This document shows positions 5,529-64,000 of a DNA stretch of 64,000 nucleotides, in pieces. Location: NCBI GenBank assembly GCA_000004695.1, contig CM000154.2, forward strand, positions 3,936,001 to 4,000,000, given 5' to 3'. Under the pieces are notes generated by a model, which was not told where the DNA came from, ran no database searches, and saw only the letters and a list, made by a program, of their open reading frames with translations. A program made the position numbers and the translations under genes. Origin of the DNA: Dictyostelium discoideum (lineage: Eukaryota). The first letter of the stretch is position 1. Every line of letters begins with the position of its first letter.

Positions 5529-6084
5529 AAATAAAATTTATTATTTCAATCGGATTAAAAAAAAAAAAAAACTAAACAATAATTATTATGTCATAACTAT
5601 TAAAAATATTATTTCCAAATAAAAAAAATAAAATAAAATAGATATCAAAGATCTTAAAAAAACTTATTTTGGTTATTTTTACCAAATATAATAATTTTTA
5701 TAATTATAATTTTTTAAAATTATTTTTTTTATTTATTTTTTTTTTTTTCCATTTACCGCTTAATAATTCATTTCTTAAAACCAAATCAATTTCCAATGAA
5801 CTTTTATCTATTTTTAATTCATATTTATTACTAAATAATGATTGAACTTTTTTTTTATTTAAACTTTTTTTTTTTTTTTTTTTTATATAATAAATATTTA
5901 TATAATAAAAAAAATAATAGAAAAAAAAAAAAATGGGAAAAATAAGTTATTTTAATACTGATTATCATATAATATAATATAAATAAAACTTTTTTTTTTT
6001 TTTTTTTTATTTTTCAATTTCTTTTTTTTTTTATTATATATTTTTTTTTTTTTTTTTATTTATCATTATTTTTTTTTTATTTAT

Positions 6085-8741: not shown

Positions 8742-10272
8742 GTCAATTATTTTAACAGGTTCACCATTTGAATTAATTATTATAATTACAATTTTTACAA
8801 GTTTAATTTGTTTATTAATTAAACTATCTATAAAAATTCATAAATGGAGAAAGAATAAATCAAATAATTCCTATCATCTTTTATTAGGAAATCCAAATAG
8901 TAAATACCATTATAAAAATAATAATTATAATAATAATAACAAATCATCAATTAAATATATATGTTCAACTGTTATTACTTTAATTTTATTGTTATCAGTT
9001 TGGTAAATATTTAATTTATTAAATTTTTTTATTTATTATAAAATATAAAATTAAAATTTTAACACTTTTATTTTTTTTTTTAAAAAAAAGCTCATTTTTA
9101 TTTATTTCAATATTTGTAAATAAAGATTTAGATCAATCAATAACAATATCAATTGATAATTTAGAATCACATCTTAAAAATAGAGTTGAAGTTGAAAATA
9201 GAATTGTTAAAGAATGTGAACCAATCACTTCAATACCATATGATGCAATGGAGATAGTATCAACTACCAAACAAATATTGAATGCTACCGAAGAGACAAA
9301 AGAGTATATACGTGAATATGAATATTACAGATACCAATTCATTTTCATATTGATTCTATCATTATTTGCTGTGATTTCATTAGGTTTATTATCAATTATA
9401 ATTCGATTAAAATGGGTATTGGCTTTGTTCTTCATTATTGGTATTTTCATTACATGTATTGGTGTTTGGATCGTACCTTCAACTCATGTACCAATGGGTG
9501 TAGTTATCTCTGATATCTGTCCAAACATGGATACAATCATTAACCAATATGCACCAGAATCAATTAATCCATACATTTATTTCTTTTTAAATTGTACAGG
9601 AAAGGATGACTTTAATTTCATCTATGGTATGTTGGATGATAAAATTGAATCCACTCAAAATTCCCTAGAAAGAGCTAAATCACGTCATTATTCAAATTCA
9701 ACTATCAGTAAAATTCAATCAAAATTAGATGACCTTGTTAATTTATCAAGAGATGCAAAAGATATTTTAAATTGTAAAATAACTCAAAATACTTTTAAAT
9801 CAACAAAAGATATAATTTGTATTGATATAATGTAATTATAAATTTAAATTTAATTATATATATATTTTAATAAATAATAATATACTAACTCTTTTTTTTT
9901 TTTTTTTTTTTTTTTTTATATAGAAATTCTTCATTCATTTTATCAATTTTATTTACTATAATTGGTTTATTATTATCAATTGCATTTATTACATCAATGG
10001 TAATTTATTCAAAACCTAAAAAACAAAATAGAAATAATTTTGACAGTAAGAAACAATTTGATTCTCCAAAAAAGACAAGAATGATTAAATCAAAAAATAT
10101 CAATATTAATGGTGCTAATGATGAGGATGATGATGATTTTGAAAGAGATGATTCTTTAACACCACTTTTATCATCATCAGAATCTTTATTAAATAGTTAC
10201 TATGATGATGATACTGTAGTTTCAAATATTTCTTCACCATTCTCTTCACCTTCAAATAGATATATAATTTAA
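8329..10272 (+). CDS. Multi-pass membrane protein: signal peptide, about five TM helices, Ser/Asp-rich cytoplasmic tail. Exon model: join(8329..8634,8743..9002,9091..9831,9924..10272).
   Basis: Three introns with GTAATC, GTAAAT and GTAATT donors and poly-T...AG acceptors. The chosen splice phases join ORFs 8329..8661, 9248..9835 and 9997..10272 into one frame. Hydrophobic segments include FELIIIITIFTSLICLLI, FIFILILSLFAVISLGLLSIII, VLALFFIIGIFITCIGVWIV and FILSILFTIIGLLLSIAFI. Confidence 0.6.
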
Positions 10273-10401
10273 TAGATAAAATAATAATAAATAAATTAAT
10301 TTAAACTTAAAATAAAAATAGTAATAAAATAATAAAAGTCGGTATTTATAGTTTTAATTTTTTTTTTTTTTTTATATTGTTTTAACTTTATGTGTATTTA
10401 T

Positions 10402-11228
<827 letters not shown>

Positions 11229-30620: not shown

Positions 30621-31077
30621 TTAATTCCAAATCATTTCACCATTTGCTTTATTAAAGAGGGTATCTTTACCATTCAAATGCATAATGCCATCTTTAAAAT
30701 TACATTTTCTCTTATTCTTTATTCTTGATACTTTTTCATATTGACAAAGTACAAAATGTTCGATAATTGGATCTGGGTCGTCATCATCGTCGTCATCTAA
30801 ATCACTACCCAATGAGTCCTCCTCAACTTTACCACCTCCTCCACCAATTTCTTCATCCTATTTTTATATAAATTTAAATTAAAGCAATTAGTATAGGCAA
30901 AATAAAACACAACTCCAATAACAATGATGATAATAATAATAATAATAATAATAACTTACATCCAAATCATCATCATCATTAAGCCCATCATTTTGAGGGA
31001 TAACTTCATCACCATTAAAATTAAAATTCTTTTTAAAACCATCTATAATTAATTTATCTATATTATCTTTATTATTT

Positions 31078-51061: not shown

Positions 51062-51157
51062 TGGAGAAGAAGGGTATCGATCCCTTTACCTTATGGAAAT
51101 CTGATTATCGTTGCTGTTTATGCAAACCATACGCTCTACCATATGAGCTACATCCCC
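51062..51157 (-). tRNA. tRNA-Ala (anticodon UGC) with a 23-nt intron at 51098..51120.
   Basis: Manual cloverleaf on the minus strand. Acceptor GGGGATG/CTTCTCC with a G3:U70 wobble, which is the alanine identity pair, and one U6:U67 mismatch. D-arm GCTC-ATATGGTA-GAGC. Anticodon stem TATGG/CCATA with loop TTTGCAT. Intron between positions 37 and 38. T-arm AAGGG-ATCGATA-CCCTT. Discriminator A. Mature length 73 nt. Confidence 0.6.
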
Positions 51158-57061: not shown

Positions 57062-57755
57062 TTATTGAATATTACTAAATATGAAAGATTGATGGGGTGG
57101 TAATTTTAGGAAATTCCATTTTGAAATAAAAGGATTAATCAAGTAATAAAGTTTATCATCACTATTTTTAATATAATCAATGTTGAAATGATTATTACTT
57201 AAATCTACATATTCAGTTAATAAATTTAATTTTGATTCAAATGTTTTAATTGAAATTTTTAAATTTGAATCAATTTCATTATCACTATTTCTTTTTGATA
57301 TTATTTCTTCATTATTATTACCTTCTTCATCATTAATATTTCCATATCCATTATTTTCATTATTATTTCCATTATCATTATTATTATCATTATTATTATT
57401 AAATGATAAATCAATATTGATTTTATTATTATCATGATTATTTAATAAATTATAAAGTAAAGTGAAAATAGCGATTATTGAAAGATTACAATTTCTAAAT
57501 GAAACTTTTTTTAAAGATTTACAAAGTGGTAAATGTTTAATGAGTATTTTTGAACCTTTAATACCAATATTATTATTTTGTAATTGTAATACCAATAATC
57601 TATTTGAATTTTCAATTAATTTACCAACACTTGTGATATCATCCATTGTTGATAATTCCATATCATCAATAACCAATTTACTAATTTTATTAAATTCACT
57701 ATTATCTAAAATTGATAATGATACTGGTGTCATTGCTGATGTTATTACATTCATC

Positions 57756-57793
<38 letters not shown>

Positions 57794-59319
57794 GCTTGTT
57801 GTTGTTGTTGTTGTTGTTGATTTAATTGAATTTGAACCAATATCTAAAGTTGGAATTAAACTACATTTTTTAAATAAATTAGTTAATGTTTGATTTGATA
57901 ATTTATCTAAACCACAAGATCTAATTTCAAATTCATGTAAATTTGAAAGTATATTACAAGTTGATGATGATAATAATTGAAAACCACTATCACCAATTTC
58001 TTCATTACCAGATAATTTTAATACTATTAAATTTGTTGAAGAAGAAGATAATAATAATAATGATTCAAAAATGATTTTAAATGATTGAAAAGTTAAATTA
58101 CAATAACTTAAATTTAAAGTTGTTAATGGTGAAAAAGTTAACCAATTTAAAAAGATATTTGAATCTAATTTTGAAAATCTATTAAATGAAAGATTTACAT
58201 TTTTAATATACTTTGGTTGATAATTTAATGATTTAATTGCCAATGTTAGCTTGCTAATAGTTTCTCTATTCAATGCACAATTAATTAAAGATAATTCTTC
58301 AACATTATATAACGATAGAAATATTGAAATCATTTGATCAATTGATTGAATTGATAATCTATTATTAGTGAATGAAATCGATTTAATTGTAGCTCTATTT
58401 CTAAATGATTCCAAATGAAAAGATAATGTAATTTCCAATAATGTTGATTCTTTAAAAATTTGATTATTGGTAGTGGTAGCAGTAGTATCATTTACTAAAT
58501 AATCACAACTATAACCATTAATTAATAATGAATCATCAGAGATTGAAATTGAATCGATTAGATCAGAATCTTCAAGTTGGTCATGTGAATCATCAATGAA
58601 TGAACATTTCAATTGTTTAATATTTTTCTTTTCAATTAAATCTATTAATTTATATTTCAATGGTACTTCTTTTTCATTACCAACATAGAATTTATCAACT
58701 TGAATAATTTTTTCAAATCTATTATATCCTAATAATTTAATTCTATCATTACATCTTTCTCTTAACCAATTTAAATCATATTCATTTGATTCTAATCCAA
58801 TAATTGGTATAAATAATATAATATCTAAAAATATTTTAACTTTAATAAATTTATATTTATTTAAAATTGTAGTTATTGTTATTGCTGTTGTTGTCGTTGT
58901 ATTTGATTTTTTAATTGGTGATATTAAATTATTATTATCATTGTTGTTATTGATGGTATTGTTGGTATCATCAAATACCTTATTTAAATTCTTTTTCCAA
59001 TCTTTATTTTTTTTAATTGGTACATCATTTGGAACAATAAAGTCATTAGTCCAACATGGTAATAATTCGCCATTACTATCATAATGACTTGGTGAATGAT
59101 ATTCAATTTCATTTTGATCGAAATCATCTTCAATTGAATAATTATTAGTACTACTACTATTATTATTATTTGGTGATTTCGTAGGTGATAATGGTGATGG
59201 TGATGATGTATTAAATCTTCTTTTAGTTGGTGTTGAAAGTTTTGAAGGTGTTGAAATTCTACTATTACTATTACCATTGATATTACTACTACTACTACTA
59301 TTATTATTTTTTAAAATCG

Positions 59320-59351
<32 letters not shown>

Positions 59352-62128
59352 CTATCAACAATAATTGGATCTTTAATACTTCCAGTATTTTCATAACTTT
59401 TATATTTTCTTTTTTGTTCTTCTTCTTGTTGTTCCTTTTGTAATTGTTCTAATAATGGACCTGATGAAGGATAAATTATGAAATCATCTTTATAGGAAGG
59501 TAAATCAACTGGTTTACCTGTGATTTTTGAATATTCTAAACCATCAGCACCTACTATATAACTTGAACCAACTTGAAAATGTGATCTTGTCTTTTTAGAT
59601 GATGATGATGATGATAATAATCCTCCTTCTTCAAAATTAAAATTCATTTCCCTTTTATTATTTTCATTCCTTTGAATTTGTAATAAATATTCTGTATCTA
59701 GTATTTCATTTTCAAGTTTCTCTCTTTCTTCTTTTTTATTCCTTAATTCTTCTAATATTTCTTTTCTACTTTTACCATTACCATTACTATTACTATTACC
59801 ATTACTATTACCATTACTCTTACCATTACTGTTACCATTACTATTACCATTACCATTACCATTACTATTACCATTATCAATATTATTTTTATTATTTTCT
59901 AGTATTATTGGAGATGATTTATCAATTGACATTGGTGAATTATTACCAGTTTTTAAATAATCAGCACTATTATTTAGATTATCTTCAAATGATAAATTCT
60001 CAAAAGATAAATCCTTAGTTCCATCTTTCTTTTTTGGTGAAATTTTAAATTTTGAAGATTCTGTATTATCTCTATCATCACCACCATCATCAATATAGTT
60101 AATATAATCAGTATCACAATCATAAGAGTTTTTAATATTCTTTTGAAATTGTTTTGATAGAGAGTATTTTTGTGATTGTGATAATGATAATGATTGTGAT
60201 GATGATGATAATGATAATGATAATGATGGTGATGATGATTGATAATTTTCTTGTTCTTGTTTTAATTTTTTAATTCTTTCATTTACTTTTGATTCTTTTA
60301 TTAAAGTTTCTTTATAAAATTTTGAAAAATCATCAAATTCTAAATAAACTAATAATAAATTTGAAATTGCCATTAATTTCCTTTCAAAAATTGAAATTAA
60401 TATTTGATATTCTTCTTCTTGATCTTCTCCTCCCTCTTTTTCTTTTTCAAATTGATCATTCTCTAAAATTTTAATTGCATCATTTAATAAACTAATTCTT
60501 TTTTCCTTTCTACTATCACCAAATGGTTCTAACCTTTTCAATGCATTTGAATAATTTATTTTTGCTAATGCTATTATTTGTATTATTTGTTGTTGTTGTT
60601 GTTGTTGTAATTGTAGATTATTATTATTATTATTACTGTTTTCATTTATTTTATTACTAAATTCTATTATAGATCTACTTAAACCAATTGAGATATTAAA
60701 ATATTTTTTTATTTTTAAACAATCTAAATAATTTGAATGATCTTCTAAAACTAAAAATAATTTATCATATTTTTTTAAATAAATTAATGATTTTTCATAT
60801 TCTACCCAATATTTTAATTTCTTTTCAATGAAATAAAAATATCTATTTTCATAATCATCTGGTTTCTCTTTATCTAATTGATCTAAAATCGTTTCATATA
60901 TTAAAATTAAATTTTCATGATATAGAGTTATATCTCTATTATTATTATTATTATTATTATTATCATCTTCATTTTTATTTTTATCTTTATTATTATTATT
61001 TGAATTTAAAATTGAATTTAATAATTTTTCAGATTCAATTCTATTTTTATTAATTTTAATTGAATTTTTTAAACGATTCATTTGAAAATCTAAATATGAT
61101 CTCTTTATTAAATGTGGACACTTTTCAGATTCTTTTTCAAGTTGTTTAATTGTTTCTTTAAATTCTTTATTTCTTTCATCACTATAATAGCATTCAAGTA
61201 ATAATTGATAACAATCAAATTTATCTTTATCCATTTTAGTTGTTGATGATGATCTATTAATTCTTTCATTTAAATAATAACTTGCTCCAACTGCATCATG
61301 ACATTTTAAACATAATAATCCTAAATTATAATATTGATTTCCTTCCATATCTTTTTTACATTTTTCTTCAACTAATAAAAAAAAAATAATAATAATAATA
61401 ATCATATATATATATTAATAATTAATTTTTTAATTTTTAAAATTATAATGTATAATATTATTCTTACTCTTTTTATAAAATGATAAAGCTTTTTTATATT
61501 GTTCTAAATGAATACTACAATAAATTTCATTTGATAAAAGTTCAATATTCTTTATAAAATCTTTAATGTTTTCAGATGATTGATTATCAATTTCTAAAAG
61601 TTCAACTGAATATTGATATGCTAAAACTTTTAAATACTTTATTGCTTTCCTTATTATTGTATATGGATTATTGTTTTTATTATAAATTTTATTTTTATTA
61701 TTTGTTGAAGAATCTTCATTATCTAATTTATTTAATTTATTACAATAAAATACACCAATGTCATGAAAACAATCAAATGATATTTTATAAAATTTCTTTG
61801 TTGGTGGTTGAAATGTTTTAAGTTTCGATTGAAAATGTTCAATCCTTATGATTATATCATTTTCATTTAATATGTCAATACCAAATAGCATATTGGTATT
61901 AAATACACCAATTAAAATACCTAAAATATCATATAATGTACTCTCTTTGATATCATTATCATTATTATTATTGTTTTTATTATTATAGTCACTACCAACA
62001 CTATTATATATTTTATTTATAATTTCCCATCCTTTTCTATATTCATCTCTAGTTTTCTTTTTTTTTTCAAATCCACCTTTTTCTGATAATTTTGCTGATT
62101 TTAATATATTTGATAATTGTACTTCCAT
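57062..62128 (-). CDS. Large TPR-like + leucine-rich-repeat (RNI-type LRR) protein. Proposed model: join(57062..61371,61468..62128), minus strand, ~1656 aa.
   Basis: ORFs 61430..62128 and 57062..61405 are separated by 24 nt. They join in frame through a GTAAGA donor at 61467 and a TATTAG acceptor at 61372, giving ...ALSFYKK|IEEKCKKDMEGNQYYNLG.... The N-terminus has TPR-like helices, the middle is Asn/Ser-rich, and the C-terminal ~550 aa hold LRRs of the L..L.LS.N.I type. Confidence 0.55.
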
Positions 62129-62920
62129 TTTAAAAAATGGTCAATTTATTATTTATTATAATAAAAAAAAAAAAAAAAAAATAGAAAACTTCTTGTTTAT
62201 TTATTAATTATTTATTTATTTTATTTATTTATTTATTTTATTTATTTATTTATTGTTTATTTGTTTGTAAAAAAAAAGAAAATAAAAAAAAAAAAAAAAA
62301 AATAATAAACTTCTTGCTTTTTTTGAAAATTAATTTTTTTTTATTTTTCAATTTTTTTTTTAAAAAAAAAAAGGAGGGAAAATTTTTTAGATATTTTAAT
62401 TGTTTCTATGAATATAACAATTAAAAACAACTTTACAAAATAAGAAATCTAATAAATATATATATTTGAATAATTAAATAATTATATAAATAAAAGGTTG
62501 AATAATAATTGTGATTCTAAGCATTATTTAATCTTGATAAAATTTTTGAATGGGCTATTAGTATATGTAATTAATTTAAACTTAATTTAGGTCATCAGAA
62601 ACTACATATAATGAAATCATGTTCACCTCAACCCACACCTACAATTTGGTACAATGCAAATATGTGTTAAGGTCAAAAAAAAAAAAAAAAAAGTTTTATT
62701 AATAAAAAAAAGTTTTATTATTAAAATTTTCTATTAAAAAAAAAAAAAAAAAAAAAAAAATTTAATAAATAATAAAAATTAATAATGCCTTACAGAAGGA
62801 ATTTGTTTTAAATTTTGTATCCCTTTCTATTTTAATTTCAAAAAAAAAAAAATAGATATCAATGGTTGCACTCTAAAAAATAGAAATATATAAAAAAAAA
62901 TTATAATAATAAAAAAAAGA

Positions 62921-63028
62921 GTTTGAAATAAATAAAATTAAAATAAGCACCAAAAAAGATTATAATTTTAGCTTTTTTTCTCTTATTTCGAAAAAAATAA
63001 ATTAGGAAATTCCCTTAGACACATTTCA

Positions 63029-63036
<8 letters not shown>
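62921..63036. repeat. Copy 1 of a tandemly duplicated non-coding module. Core motif AAATAAATTAGGAAATTCCCTTAGACACATTT.
   Basis: A second copy at 63341..63440 shares gtttgaaataagca.caaaaaa...aaataaattRggWaattccctt.gacacattt. Similarity continues downstream of both copies. Confidence 0.5.
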
Positions 63037-63078
<42 letters not shown>

Positions 63079-63099
63079 AATGGATAAAATTATTTATAT

Positions 63100-63232
63100 A
63101 TTATTCTCCATTTTTAACTCTTGAGAGTGCTATCCGGACTATTAGTGCTAATAAAAGCCCTTCTAAGGGATGGTCGACCTTGCCATTATGTGTAGCCAAT
63201 CAAATAATGAAGCATCAAACCCTACTTTTTTT
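63100..63232 (+). ncRNA. Candidate small non-coding RNA. A GC-richer ~130-bp segment starts about 65 bp after the conserved upstream motif and ends in a T10 run.
   Basis: Local GC is far above the intergenic background (tgctatccggactattagtgctaataaaagcccttctaagggatggtcgaccttgccattatgtgtagcc). There is no ORF. It ends in a Pol III-like oligo-T. The family is not recognised. Confidence 0.25.
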
Positions 63233-63340
63233 TTTCTTTTTTTTTTTGCTTTTCACTTTTTTTTTTATTTCACCCATGTAATAAAAATTAATTTCTAAAT
63301 ATGGATTGATTGATTCTTTAGAAATGTAAAAAAATTAAAA

Positions 63341-63435
63341 TGTTTGAAATAAGCATCAAAAAAATAAAAAAGTGTTTAACCACTTCCCAAAAAAAAAATA
63401 AATTGGGTAATTCCCTTTGACACATTTTATATTTT

Positions 63436-63440
<5 letters not shown>
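63341..63440. repeat. Copy 2 of the duplicated non-coding module.
   Basis: See copy 1. The core is aaataaattgggtaattccctttgacacatttt. Confidence 0.5.
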
Positions 63441-63468
<28 letters not shown>

Positions 63469-63596
63469 TTTATAAACAAAAATTTAATTTAGTTCAAAAA
63501 ATTATTCTATATTATTTTAATAATTCAAATAATAATTTTATCTGTTTTACAAAAAAAATGAATAAATCAAATAATGAAATATCAAACCCACAATAA

Positions 63597-63942
63597 GGAA
63601 GCTCAAATGATTCTAATGTTAATTCATCAAATGGTGGTTCAAGTAGTCCAAATTTTTTTATAGTTTATAAAGATGGTATTCAATACAAATTTCACAATTC
63701 ATCAACTTCGAAAGATGTTCTCAACTTTTTTGGATTAGAAAATGGTTATCTACAAACTCAACTTGGCCATCAAAAAGTTATTAATGCTAATCCAAATTAT
63801 TTACCAACATCTGGTACTTTTCATGTTGTTGAACAATCTTCAAAATTTTTATTTTTCAAAATCGCTGTATTAATAATTTCAATTAACTTTATAATTCAAA
63901 TTATATATTATTCAATTAAAATTTTAAAATAATTATATAATA
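63597..63942 (+). CDS. Terminal coding exon of an unidentified gene: ...FIVYKDGIQYKFHNSSTSKDVLNFFGLENGYLQ... followed by a C-terminal hydrophobic segment. The 5' exon(s) were not found.
   Basis: 115-codon open frame ending in a TAA at 63940-63942, with no ATG. It begins immediately after an in-frame TAA and a possible ATAAG acceptor at 63595. Confidence 0.3.
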
Positions 63943-64000
63943 AATAAAACTTTTTTTATAATTTTAGTTTTTGATTTATTTTTATTTTTTAGTAATTTTT

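Follow-up and report, generated by a model that had tools for sequence, protein, structure and literature searches.

Partial tandem duplication of the 5' end of a gene is a common neutral variant. The DUSE-dependent ncRNA genes of Dictyostelium comprise Class I/II RNAs and the spliceosomal snRNAs; Class I RNAs are ~42-65 nt long and carry an 11-nt CCUUACAGCAA motif, which adjoins a short 5'/3' terminal stem. The DUSE consensus is given in one form as [AT]CCCA[CT]AA. In the literature consulted here it reads [AT]CCCA[AT]AA (PMC3188802), and the element lies ~60-63 nt upstream, counted from the transcription start or from a TGTG box (PMC7919456). Pol III genes with internal promoters (A box, B box) and 5'-truncated non-LTR retroelements or processed pseudogenes are the other systems with which the locus described below can be compared.

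We analysed a window (the whole stretch of DNA under study, 64,000 nt) from chromosome 5 of Dictyostelium discoideum AX4. The locus sits in the intergenic spacer of two divergently oriented genes, a large one on the minus strand (ATG at 62128) and DDB_G0290345, the orphan gene to which the ORF downstream of the module belongs. For comparison we used an independent AX4-like assembly (L002, GCA_054883475.1) and two related assemblies that carry a single module, L001 (20 kb of syntenic sequence; ~9% diverged from AX4, measured over 6.5 kb of flanking sequence) and L003 (12 kb). Literature searches with the DDB_G0290345 identifier and with sub-strings of the insert described below returned nothing relevant, and exact-protein look-up gave no record for the annotated product P0001 or for a neighbouring ORF of 232 aa.

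An initial annotation had described the spacer as containing a tandemly duplicated non-coding module, and the duplication is real and of an ordinary kind: two copies of roughly 400-440 bp each lie head to tail (Table 1). The 64 kb hold exactly two occurrences of the 32-nt core AAATAAATTRGGWAATTCCCTTNGACACATTT, where shuffles expect none, and even at 3 mismatches the window has no other; extended to a 44-nt block, the two occurrences are 86% identical at a spacing of 401 nt, a score reached by 0/500 shuffles. The distal block AATCAAATAATGAARNATCAAACCC (63198-63222 and 63565-63589; 23/25 identical) is likewise reached by 0/500 shuffles, and the left block (TAGAAAT...GTTTGAAATAA...GCAYCAAAAAA) is common to both copies and colinear, with an indel of 14-16 nt. 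Two further similarities listed by the annotation fared less well: the match of AAAATTATTTATATATTATT to AAAATTA-TTCTATATTATT (19/20), within the stretch given as ttataaa...aattattct, is colinear but weak, since 15/500 shuffles score equally, and the supposedly shared A run is T44 in copy 1 and A30 at the same position in copy 2. An inversion behind this homopolymer difference was considered, but the flanks have no reverse-complement match. Three-way MAFFT alignments of the low-complexity blocks were unreliable and pairwise local alignments were therefore used; a local alignment score over the whole region was not discriminating, because homopolymers raise the scores of neighbouring control regions to a similar level. 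L002 contains the insert and the core and distal block of each copy, and differs from the window over 62600-63700 only in homopolymer lengths. It reproduces both copies, and therefore the duplication is not an assembly artefact, the possibility that the annotation itself had raised.

Table 1. Features of the duplicated module and of DDB_G0290345 in the window (positions of the window unless L001 is named)
Feature	Position	Strand	Comparison or basis
Annotated exon 1 of DDB_G0290345 (MKSCSPQPTPTIWYNANM)	62613-62667	+	P0001 sequence matches window
Copy 1, left block TAGATATCAAT...TAGAAATAT...GTTTGAAATAAATAAAAT...CACCAAAAAA...TTTTAGCTTTTTTTCTCTTATT	62853-62987	+	103/109 ungapped columns identical to L001 9695-9815
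Copy 1, core motif, with near-palindrome GGAAATTCC	62995-63026	+	Repeat and shuffle tests
Copy 1, T44 homopolymer	63031-63074	+	T26 in independent AX4-like assembly; A run in copy 2
Copy 1, diverged remains of the pre-start segment (TTTATAAA ... AAAATTATTTATATATTATT)	63073-63117	+	19/20 match to 63497-63515
Copy 1, unique 80-nt segment, 46% GC (insert; proposed small RNA)	63118-63197	.	Counterpart in copy 2: ~44 nt, AT-rich, 63521-63564
Copy 1, distal block, duplicate of codons 3-11 (..SNNEASNP..), right end of unit	63198-63225	+	Repeat alignment, ORF comparison
T-rich spacer/junction between copies (T10 C T11 ... T10 ...)	63226-63314	+	3' part homologous to L001 sequence upstream of module
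Copy 2, left block, with internal deletions compared to copy 1 and L001	63315-63379	+	62/63 ungapped columns identical to L001 9708-9795
Copy 2, core motif	63396-63427	+	Motif search
Copy 2, A30 homopolymer	63437-63466	+	Homopolymer count
Copy 2, 46-bp segment just 5' of gene start, TATA-like TTTATAAAC	63469-63514	+	100% identical in L001; 100% identical but inverted in L003
Ancestral gene start: ATG 63558, then MNKSNNEISNPQ; TAA 63594-63596	63558-63596	+	ORF list, cross-assembly comparison
Remainder of ancestral ORF, in frame with ATG 63558; stop 63930-63932	63597-63932	+	S/N-rich stretch, then conserved C-terminal part with hydrophobic tail

The related assemblies have one copy where AX4 has two, and among the assemblies compared only those of the laboratory lineage of the species show the duplication. 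Positions 9678-9822 of L001 align to 62850-62991 and also to 63283-63425 of the window, and L003 lacks the core and has a single distal block. The one copy in L001 combines features each of which is present in just one AX4 copy, as expected from independent decay after duplication. The 46-bp segment of copy 2 is diverged in copy 1. As to the direction of change, parsimony from these two assemblies would allow that the AX4 lineage gained a copy or that the other lineage lost one.

L003 contains an intact, unspliced ORF of 132 aa (P0004, MNKSNNEISNPLLGSSNDSN...), the start codon and codons 3-11 of which lie in the distal-block region, and therefore the duplication copied the upstream flank and the first 11 codons of DDB_G0290345. 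Contrary to the annotation, the module is thus not wholly non-coding, its distal block being codons 3-11 of the ancestral ORF. Copy 2 does adjoin coding sequence, as the annotation had it, but the exon into which it was said to lead is not intact, because the ORF from ATG 63558 stops at 63594-63596. This TAA at codon 13 is an AX4-specific nonsense codon (TTA in L003); AX4 also has a 24-nt in-frame deletion, and L001 shows ATG -> ACG plus a 1-nt frameshift. On the comparison of these assemblies DDB_G0290345 is a decaying orphan gene, and its predicted ancestral form is an unspliced ORF of 132 codons.

The annotated structure of the gene would place the whole finding in a genuine long intron of DDB_G0290345, with exon 1 at 62613, an acceptor at 63600 or 63661 (exon 2 as annotated in AX4 begins at 63662) and an intronic module. 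Two independent annotations of AX4-type assemblies (P0001 and P0003) indeed have an exon at 62613 and span the region with an intron; however, they differ from each other at both splice sites, their donors GTTAAG and GTACAA poorly resemble the usual GTAAGT, and the intron, at 950-994 nt, greatly exceeds the D. discoideum mean of ~146 nt. Exon 1 lies within a GC-richer island that is conserved in the related assemblies as DNA but not as an ORF, its ATG being missing and an in-frame stop being present in both L001 and L003, whereas the L003 ORF starts, unspliced, inside the distal block. The two models resemble rescues of an ORF whose start was lost through the TAA at codon 13, and we regard a genuine long intron as unlikely. 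Annotated exon 1 is probably an annotation artefact, and the gene model for DDB_G0290345 in AX4 (exon 1 at 62613 with an intron of ~1 kb) is probably wrong, which is of concern to genome curators. The core motif raises a different possibility, namely that the duplication doubled a regulatory element, the GGAAATTCC-type near-palindrome together with GACACATTT being a transcription-factor site for DDB_G0290345 or for the divergent gene. It is the best-preserved part of the copies (the 86% over 44 nt given above) and contains a 4+1+4 palindrome. Nevertheless, it is cut down to CTTTGACACATTT in L001 and absent from L003, the very assembly in which the ORF is intact, it has no further occurrence in the window, and in AX4 the gene behind it has a nonsense codon, so that we give a doubled regulatory site little credence. 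Its reduction or loss in the related genomes implies that the core is shared only because the AX4 copies are paralogous.

The insert itself admits several readings. As the annotation had claimed, copy 1 contains a GC-richer insert (46% GC) followed by a T10 run (63226-63235, directly 3' of the copy 1 distal block), but the part unique within the window is only ~80 nt, not 120-130 nt; it replaces the ~44 nt of AT-rich sequence that in copy 2 stands directly upstream of the start codon. GC content over 62001-64000 is 17.6%. The window holds 15 GC-rich islands, 10 of them inside long ORFs, and the remaining five are one tRNA, three apparent short exons (judged from sequence) and the insert. It is unusual in this DNA for a 46% GC island to lie outside long ORFs, and we count this against our preferred explanation.

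The same island speaks for a young, lineage-specific small-RNA gene at ~63110-63226, for which the core and a TATA-like box would serve Pol III as the upstream element and the T10 as the end; no T run of >=4 occurs between 63116 and 63225, and a TATA-like TTTATAAAA lies upstream of the island at 63073-63081. The annotation had placed a Pol III-type small RNA at 63100-63232 behind a conserved DUSE-like element and had proposed folding and Rfam as checks, and neither these nor promoter order nor synteny bore it out. Against Rfam 15 at E<=10 the insert had no match (searches of 62400-64000 and 63070-63245 gave best scores of 12-21 bits, with thresholds of 36-88 bits), and its folding is no stronger than that of shuffled sequence on the plus strand (-20.2 kcal/mol; dinucleotide-shuffle mean, -21.5; z +0.38) or on the minus strand (z +0.94). 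The sole Rfam match in the window at the gathering threshold is the tRNA at 51062-51157, and the Rfam tRNA model has no match at the insert; ARAGORN found nothing in its search, in which it also missed this intron-containing tRNA. No DUSE with <=1 mismatch was found on the plus strand of 62850-63384, nor within 150 nt upstream on the minus strand. Exact DUSE matches at 63385 and 63586 lie downstream of the insert, in copy 2, and the window-wide counts from two consensus searches (13 vs 19.8 expected and 6 vs 9.4 expected) are at or below chance. The core that would have to act in place of a DUSE is 90-120 nt upstream instead of ~60 nt and is partly or wholly missing in the related genomes. A search for an A box (TRGCNNAGTGG) with a B box (GGTTCGANNCC) 30-60 nt behind it gave only look-alikes with 2 mismatches each; these are on the minus strand, and their order is reversed (B-like at 63221 upstream of A-like at 63185). 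The T10 after the insert is non-discriminating as a terminator because the 64 kb contain 109 T runs of >=10 (and 555 of >=5), which puts a T10 about every 600 nt per strand. Finally, the insert is absent from the syntenic regions of L001 and L003. A small-RNA gene in the insert, so far as sequence can tell, is unsupported by any test run, and we consider its existence very improbable. A Class I relic outside the insert was likewise rejected: the only CCTTACAG in the window (62788-62795), an 8-mer of which at least one copy also occurs in 22/100 shuffles, has, on inspection, no DUSE and no complementary stem, and is absent from L001 and L003.

Alternatively, the unique middle of copy 1 could be a retroposed or captured fragment on the minus strand, similar to a 5'-truncated non-LTR element or a processed transcript with a poly(A) tail. 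Read on that strand, the order is GC-rich sequence (63197-63118), AT-rich sequence (63117-63075) and A44 (63074-63031), and the homopolymer varies in length between assemblies (44 vs 26). A six-frame search of 5.8 billion proteins gave nothing at E<=10, however, and therefore the insert is not a recognisable fragment of an annotated CDS or transposon ORF; inspection of the flanks showed no target-site duplication. Transfer RNA genes are the usual target of the Dictyostelium TRE elements, and the nearest one is the tRNA gene already mentioned, 12 kb away. With 35 homopolymer runs of >=25 in the window, a long T or A run needs no poly(A) origin, and 63086-63105 is apparently homologous to copy 2 and not inserted, all of which makes retroposition or capture of this kind unlikely. 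Exact-match DNA scans of metagenome and prokaryotic genome collections with four sub-strings of the insert found nothing, and vector or E. coli contamination was rejected, as there was no E. coli match and plasmids gave only 27-nt chance matches (Spiroplasma). It might also be supposed that copy 1, with its core and TATA-like box, captured 80 bp of foreign or new GC-richer DNA and now drives a new transcript specific to the AX4 lineage, either a short ORF (MVDLAIMCSQSNNEASNPTFFF...) or a small RNA of ~110 nt that stops at the T10. On this reading a transcript would have been born very recently via duplication of the upstream flank of a gene; exact-protein look-up with the short ORFs of the insert, which covers called proteins and not transcription, gave no record, and we see only a very slight chance that it is so.

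The explanation that we prefer, and hold to be probable, is a neutral tandem duplication of the upstream flank and first codons of a decaying gene, the upstream copy being a decaying relic. In the AX4 lineage, ~400-440 bp comprising the DDB_G0290345 upstream flank and its start region to codon 11 or 12 would have been duplicated head to tail, perhaps by slippage or unequal exchange in homopolymer-rich DNA. Copy 2 would have stayed joined to the gene and retained the 46-bp pre-start segment conserved between lineages, whereas copy 1 would be a truncated relic in which the A run became a T run, the TATA-proximal segment diverged and 80 bp of GC-richer DNA, possibly filler captured during repair, took the place of the ~44 bp before the start codon. 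The core would then be common to the copies through paralogy and not as a constrained promoter element, and the T10 after the insert would be one of very many genomic T runs. The gene itself is decaying, by nonsense in AX4 and by loss of the start codon plus frameshift in L001, with an intact ORF in L003, and the AX4-type gene models would bypass the lesion by means of an invented upstream exon and the long 'intron' spanning the whole finding.

This locus suggests that, in Dictyostelium intergenic DNA, a GC-richer island with a T run is not by itself evidence of a Pol III gene, and that a motif common to two adjacent copies can reflect paralogy instead of constraint. It also suggests that upstream flanks in an AT-rich genome change fast, given the duplication, the 46-bp inversion, the deletions and the homopolymer changes between lineages ~9% apart.

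Compared with the DUSE-dependent ncRNA genes, the insert shares the appearance of an island richer in GC than the AT-rich intergenic DNA around it, with a T run behind it, and there is a C-triplet-containing motif upstream of it. It differs in that no DUSE is present up to 150 nt, the core having TTCCCTTAGA or TTCCCTTTGA, which by inspection are 2-3 mismatches away from the DUSE consensus; it has no Rfam snRNA match and is not conserved in a lineage ~9% diverged. It also has neither the motif of 11 nt nor the terminal stem of Class I RNAs, and its product would be ~110 nt long. With internal-promoter Pol III genes it has in common the T-run terminator and GGTCGACC, which is faintly similar to the B box. 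The minus strand resembles a 5'-truncated non-LTR retroelement or processed pseudogene in its succession of unique sequence, AT-rich tail and A44 run, but it differs in the absence of ORF similarity, of a target-site duplication and of a nearby tRNA, and long homopolymers are very common in the window. Partial tandem duplication of a gene 5' end differs from the situation found here in that copy 1 had ~44 bp swapped for 80 bp of GC-richer DNA, that a T run stands in copy 1 where copy 2 has an A run, and that AX4 carries a disrupted parent gene. It is alike in the two colinear head-to-tail copies here and the one copy in related genomes, in the right breakpoint, which falls within the CDS (codon 11 or 12), and in the decay of the unattached copy while the attached copy retains the conserved 46-bp segment.

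The window is strongly AT-rich (13-33% GC in 2-kb windows). A tandemly duplicated module lies in the 1.4-kb spacer that separates DDB_G0290345 from a large gene on the minus strand (ATG at 62128), and directly 3' of this module is an ORF with 98% identity to the hypothetical protein DDB_G0290345 of D. discoideum AX4. This match, together with the exact encoding of exon 1 of the AX4 model, identifies the window as AX4 chromosome 5 or a nearly identical sequence. With up to three mismatches allowed, the 32-nt module core is found twice in 64 kb (zero expected); it extends to a 44-nt block with 86% identity between copies, the distal block is identical at 23 of 25 positions, and for each the observed score was reached by none of 500 dinucleotide shuffles. 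The repetition described in the initial annotation thus clearly exceeds chance. The left block (TAGAAAT...GTTTGAAATAA...GCAYCAAAAAA) aligns colinearly between the copies, with indels. The GC-richer insert of copy 1 was also correctly described (46% GC, followed by a T10 run). The A-run thought to be common to both copies is in fact T44 in copy 1 and A30 at the equivalent place in copy 2, and the shared 'ttataaa...attattct' does show similarity, but a marginal one, equalled by 15 of 500 shuffles. We conclude that the upstream flank and CDS start of this gene were tandemly duplicated in the AX4 lineage.

Coordinates of features in the window and in two related assemblies
Feature	Window	L001	L003
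GC-rich island	10390-10990		
GC-rich island	30757-30859		
tRNA gene, minus strand	51062-51157		
Minus-strand ORFs (1447 and 232 aa, 24 nt between them)	57062-62128		
(TTTA)n microsatellite	62190-62260	8980-9095	
GC-richer island of the spacer	62600-62670	9463-9515	5563-5615
Exon 1 of the AX4 model	62613-62667		
CCTTACAG 8-mer	62788-62795		
Core, copy 1	62995-63026		
T44	63031-63074		
Insert (80 nt)	63118-63197		
Distal block, copy 1	63198-63222		
Core, copy 2	63396-63427		
A run	63437-63466		
46-bp TATA-containing segment upstream of gene start	63469-63514	9858-9903	5900-5945
Position of the L003 ATG	63558		
Distal block, copy 2	63565-63589		
AX4 stop (codon 13)	63594-63596		

Three more assemblies labelled D. 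discoideum were reached via protein clusters. One of them, the independent AX4-like L002 (GCA_054883475.1), is identical to window 62600-63700 except for homopolymer lengths (T26 in place of T44; A runs 1-4 nt shorter, the tabulated one by 3-4 nt), differences due either to genuine instability of long runs or to errors of the sequencing platform in them. Because both duplication and insert are reproduced there, an assembly artefact, which the initial annotation had named as a possible refutation, does not account for them. The other two, L001 (GCA_054859355.1) and L003 (GCA_054859385.1), group together at the protein level; across 6.5 kb of flanking DNA, most of it coding, L001 shares 90.8% identity with AX4, a divergence of about 9%. 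Each contains a single module, and the GC-rich insert is absent from the related loci of both. L001 9678-9822 aligns twice (window 62850-62991 and 63283-63425), a pattern diagnostic of tandem duplication in AX4. The lone L001 copy is a mosaic (GAAATAAATAAAAT, CACCAAAAAA and TTTTTTCTTTTTTTCTTATT copy 1-like, ATAAAAAAGTGTTTAA copy 2-like), each feature of which survives in one AX4 copy only; this fits a complete ancestral module that would have been duplicated and whose copies would then have decayed independently. The core is cut down to CTTTGACACATTT in L001 and missing from L003. The TATA-proximal 46-bp segment lies in perfect inversion in L003, so that the gene's upstream flank carries a small inversion polymorphism; orientation aside it is 100% identical across the ~9%-diverged lineages, being retained in the gene-attached copy 2 and diverged in the unattached copy 1.

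In L003 the gene is an intact, unspliced ORF of 132 aa (product P0004; MNKSNNEISNPLLGSSNDSNVNSSNG...FFIVYKDGIQYKF...) whose codons 3-11 are the distal block, so that the module, initially regarded as non-coding, includes the start of the CDS, and what was duplicated is therefore the upstream flank together with codons 1-11 of a decaying orphan gene. Copy 1 keeps the reading frame of the gene start (MVDLAIMCSQSNNEASNPTFFF) by chance, leading nowhere. In AX4, two substitutions (CTA TTA to CAA TAA) create a stop at codon 13 and the ORF also carries a 24-nt in-frame deletion, and in L001 the start codon reads ACG instead of ATG and there is a frameshift of 1 nt. Neither ATG, GTG nor TTG occurs in frame in the conserved C-terminal part, which explains the addition of an exon farther upstream when AX4-type assemblies were annotated. 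The tabulated exon 1 is encoded exactly (MKSCSPQPTPTIWYNANM), and the predicted 994-nt intron behind it encloses the entire duplicated module; this model looks like an annotation rescue. The two AX4-type gene models differ in both splice sites, and in L001 and L003 exon 1 lacks the ATG and contains an in-frame stop. Exon 2 shows 5 synonymous and 6 non-synonymous codon differences between lineages, thus constraint is weak at best. The ancestral gene is the unspliced 132-aa ORF still intact in L003, and DDB_G0290345 (locus at 62613-63932) appears to be a polymorphic pseudogene, its model, as a by-product of this analysis, likely mis-annotated.

The GC-richer island of the spacer (TCATGTTCACYTCAACYCAYACCTAC...), which serves as 'exon 1' in AX4-type models, is kept between lineages as DNA but not as an ORF, and had no match in Rfam. 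In L001 the microsatellite of the upstream spacer greatly exceeds its AX4 counterpart in length. The two minus-strand ORFs probably belong to one gene as two of its exons; in the other assemblies the syntenic gene is predicted to have a single product of 1656-1711 aa.

The insert had been proposed as a Pol III-type small RNA gene behind an upstream promoter element, with DUSE as the suggested comparison. The published DUSE, [AT]CCCA[AT]AA (PMC3188802), is located about 60-63 nt upstream (PMC7919456); none occurs within 150 nt upstream of the insert on either strand with one mismatch allowed, and over the whole window its frequency is below chance. The reverse complement of the core contains AAATGTG, the TGTG box, a heptamer seen 13 times in the window, with no DUSE 60 nt upstream on that strand. 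A-box/B-box look-alikes are weak, and their order is wrong. T runs of at least 10 number 109 in 64 kb. Rfam gave no match to the proposed RNA at the gathering threshold and only chance-level matches in relaxed scans (12-21 bits versus thresholds of 36-88 bits), and on neither strand does the insert fold better than shuffled sequence (z +0.38 and +0.94). What favours a small RNA is that islands of 46% GC seldom lie outside long ORFs in this window: 10 of 15 such islands lie inside long ORFs, the others being one tRNA, three apparent short exons (from sequence) and the insert itself. Partly for this reason we keep a very slight chance that the candidate is transcribed.

The islands at 10390-10990 and 30757-30859 (GC at least 44%, outside long ORFs) resemble, from their sequence, short exons belonging to minus-strand genes with several exons, so GC-rich islands in the AT-rich DNA of this window are small exons more often than RNA genes. 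The tRNA gene (Rfam 49 bits), with a 25-nt insertion (intron) in the anticodon loop, was overlooked by ARAGORN in its bacterial setting. The sole CCTTACAG 8-mer of the window, a sequence characteristic of the Class I/II RNA motif, has no upstream DUSE and no terminal stem and is missing from L001 and L003; with at least one occurrence in 22 of 100 shuffles, it is probably due to chance.

The insert resembles nothing among the protein, plasmid, E. coli, prokaryotic and metagenomic sequences searched. Its minus-strand layout (unique piece, AT-rich tail, A44) suggested a retroposed fragment, but no target-site duplication was found, the insert is without ORF similarity, no tRNA target lies nearby, and long homopolymers are very common in the window. 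Most likely the duplication arose when homopolymer-rich DNA underwent slippage or unequal exchange; the insert of 80 nt is probably filler taken up during a repair event, and the entire structure is probably selectively neutral.

The locus differs from DUSE-dependent ncRNA genes and from Rfam families in every testable respect, and with Pol III genes that have internal promoters it shares only the T run, which is uninformative. In form it belongs to a well-known class of structural variants, partial duplications of a gene's 5' end, and it exemplifies how fast the upstream flank of a Dictyostelium gene can change in structure.
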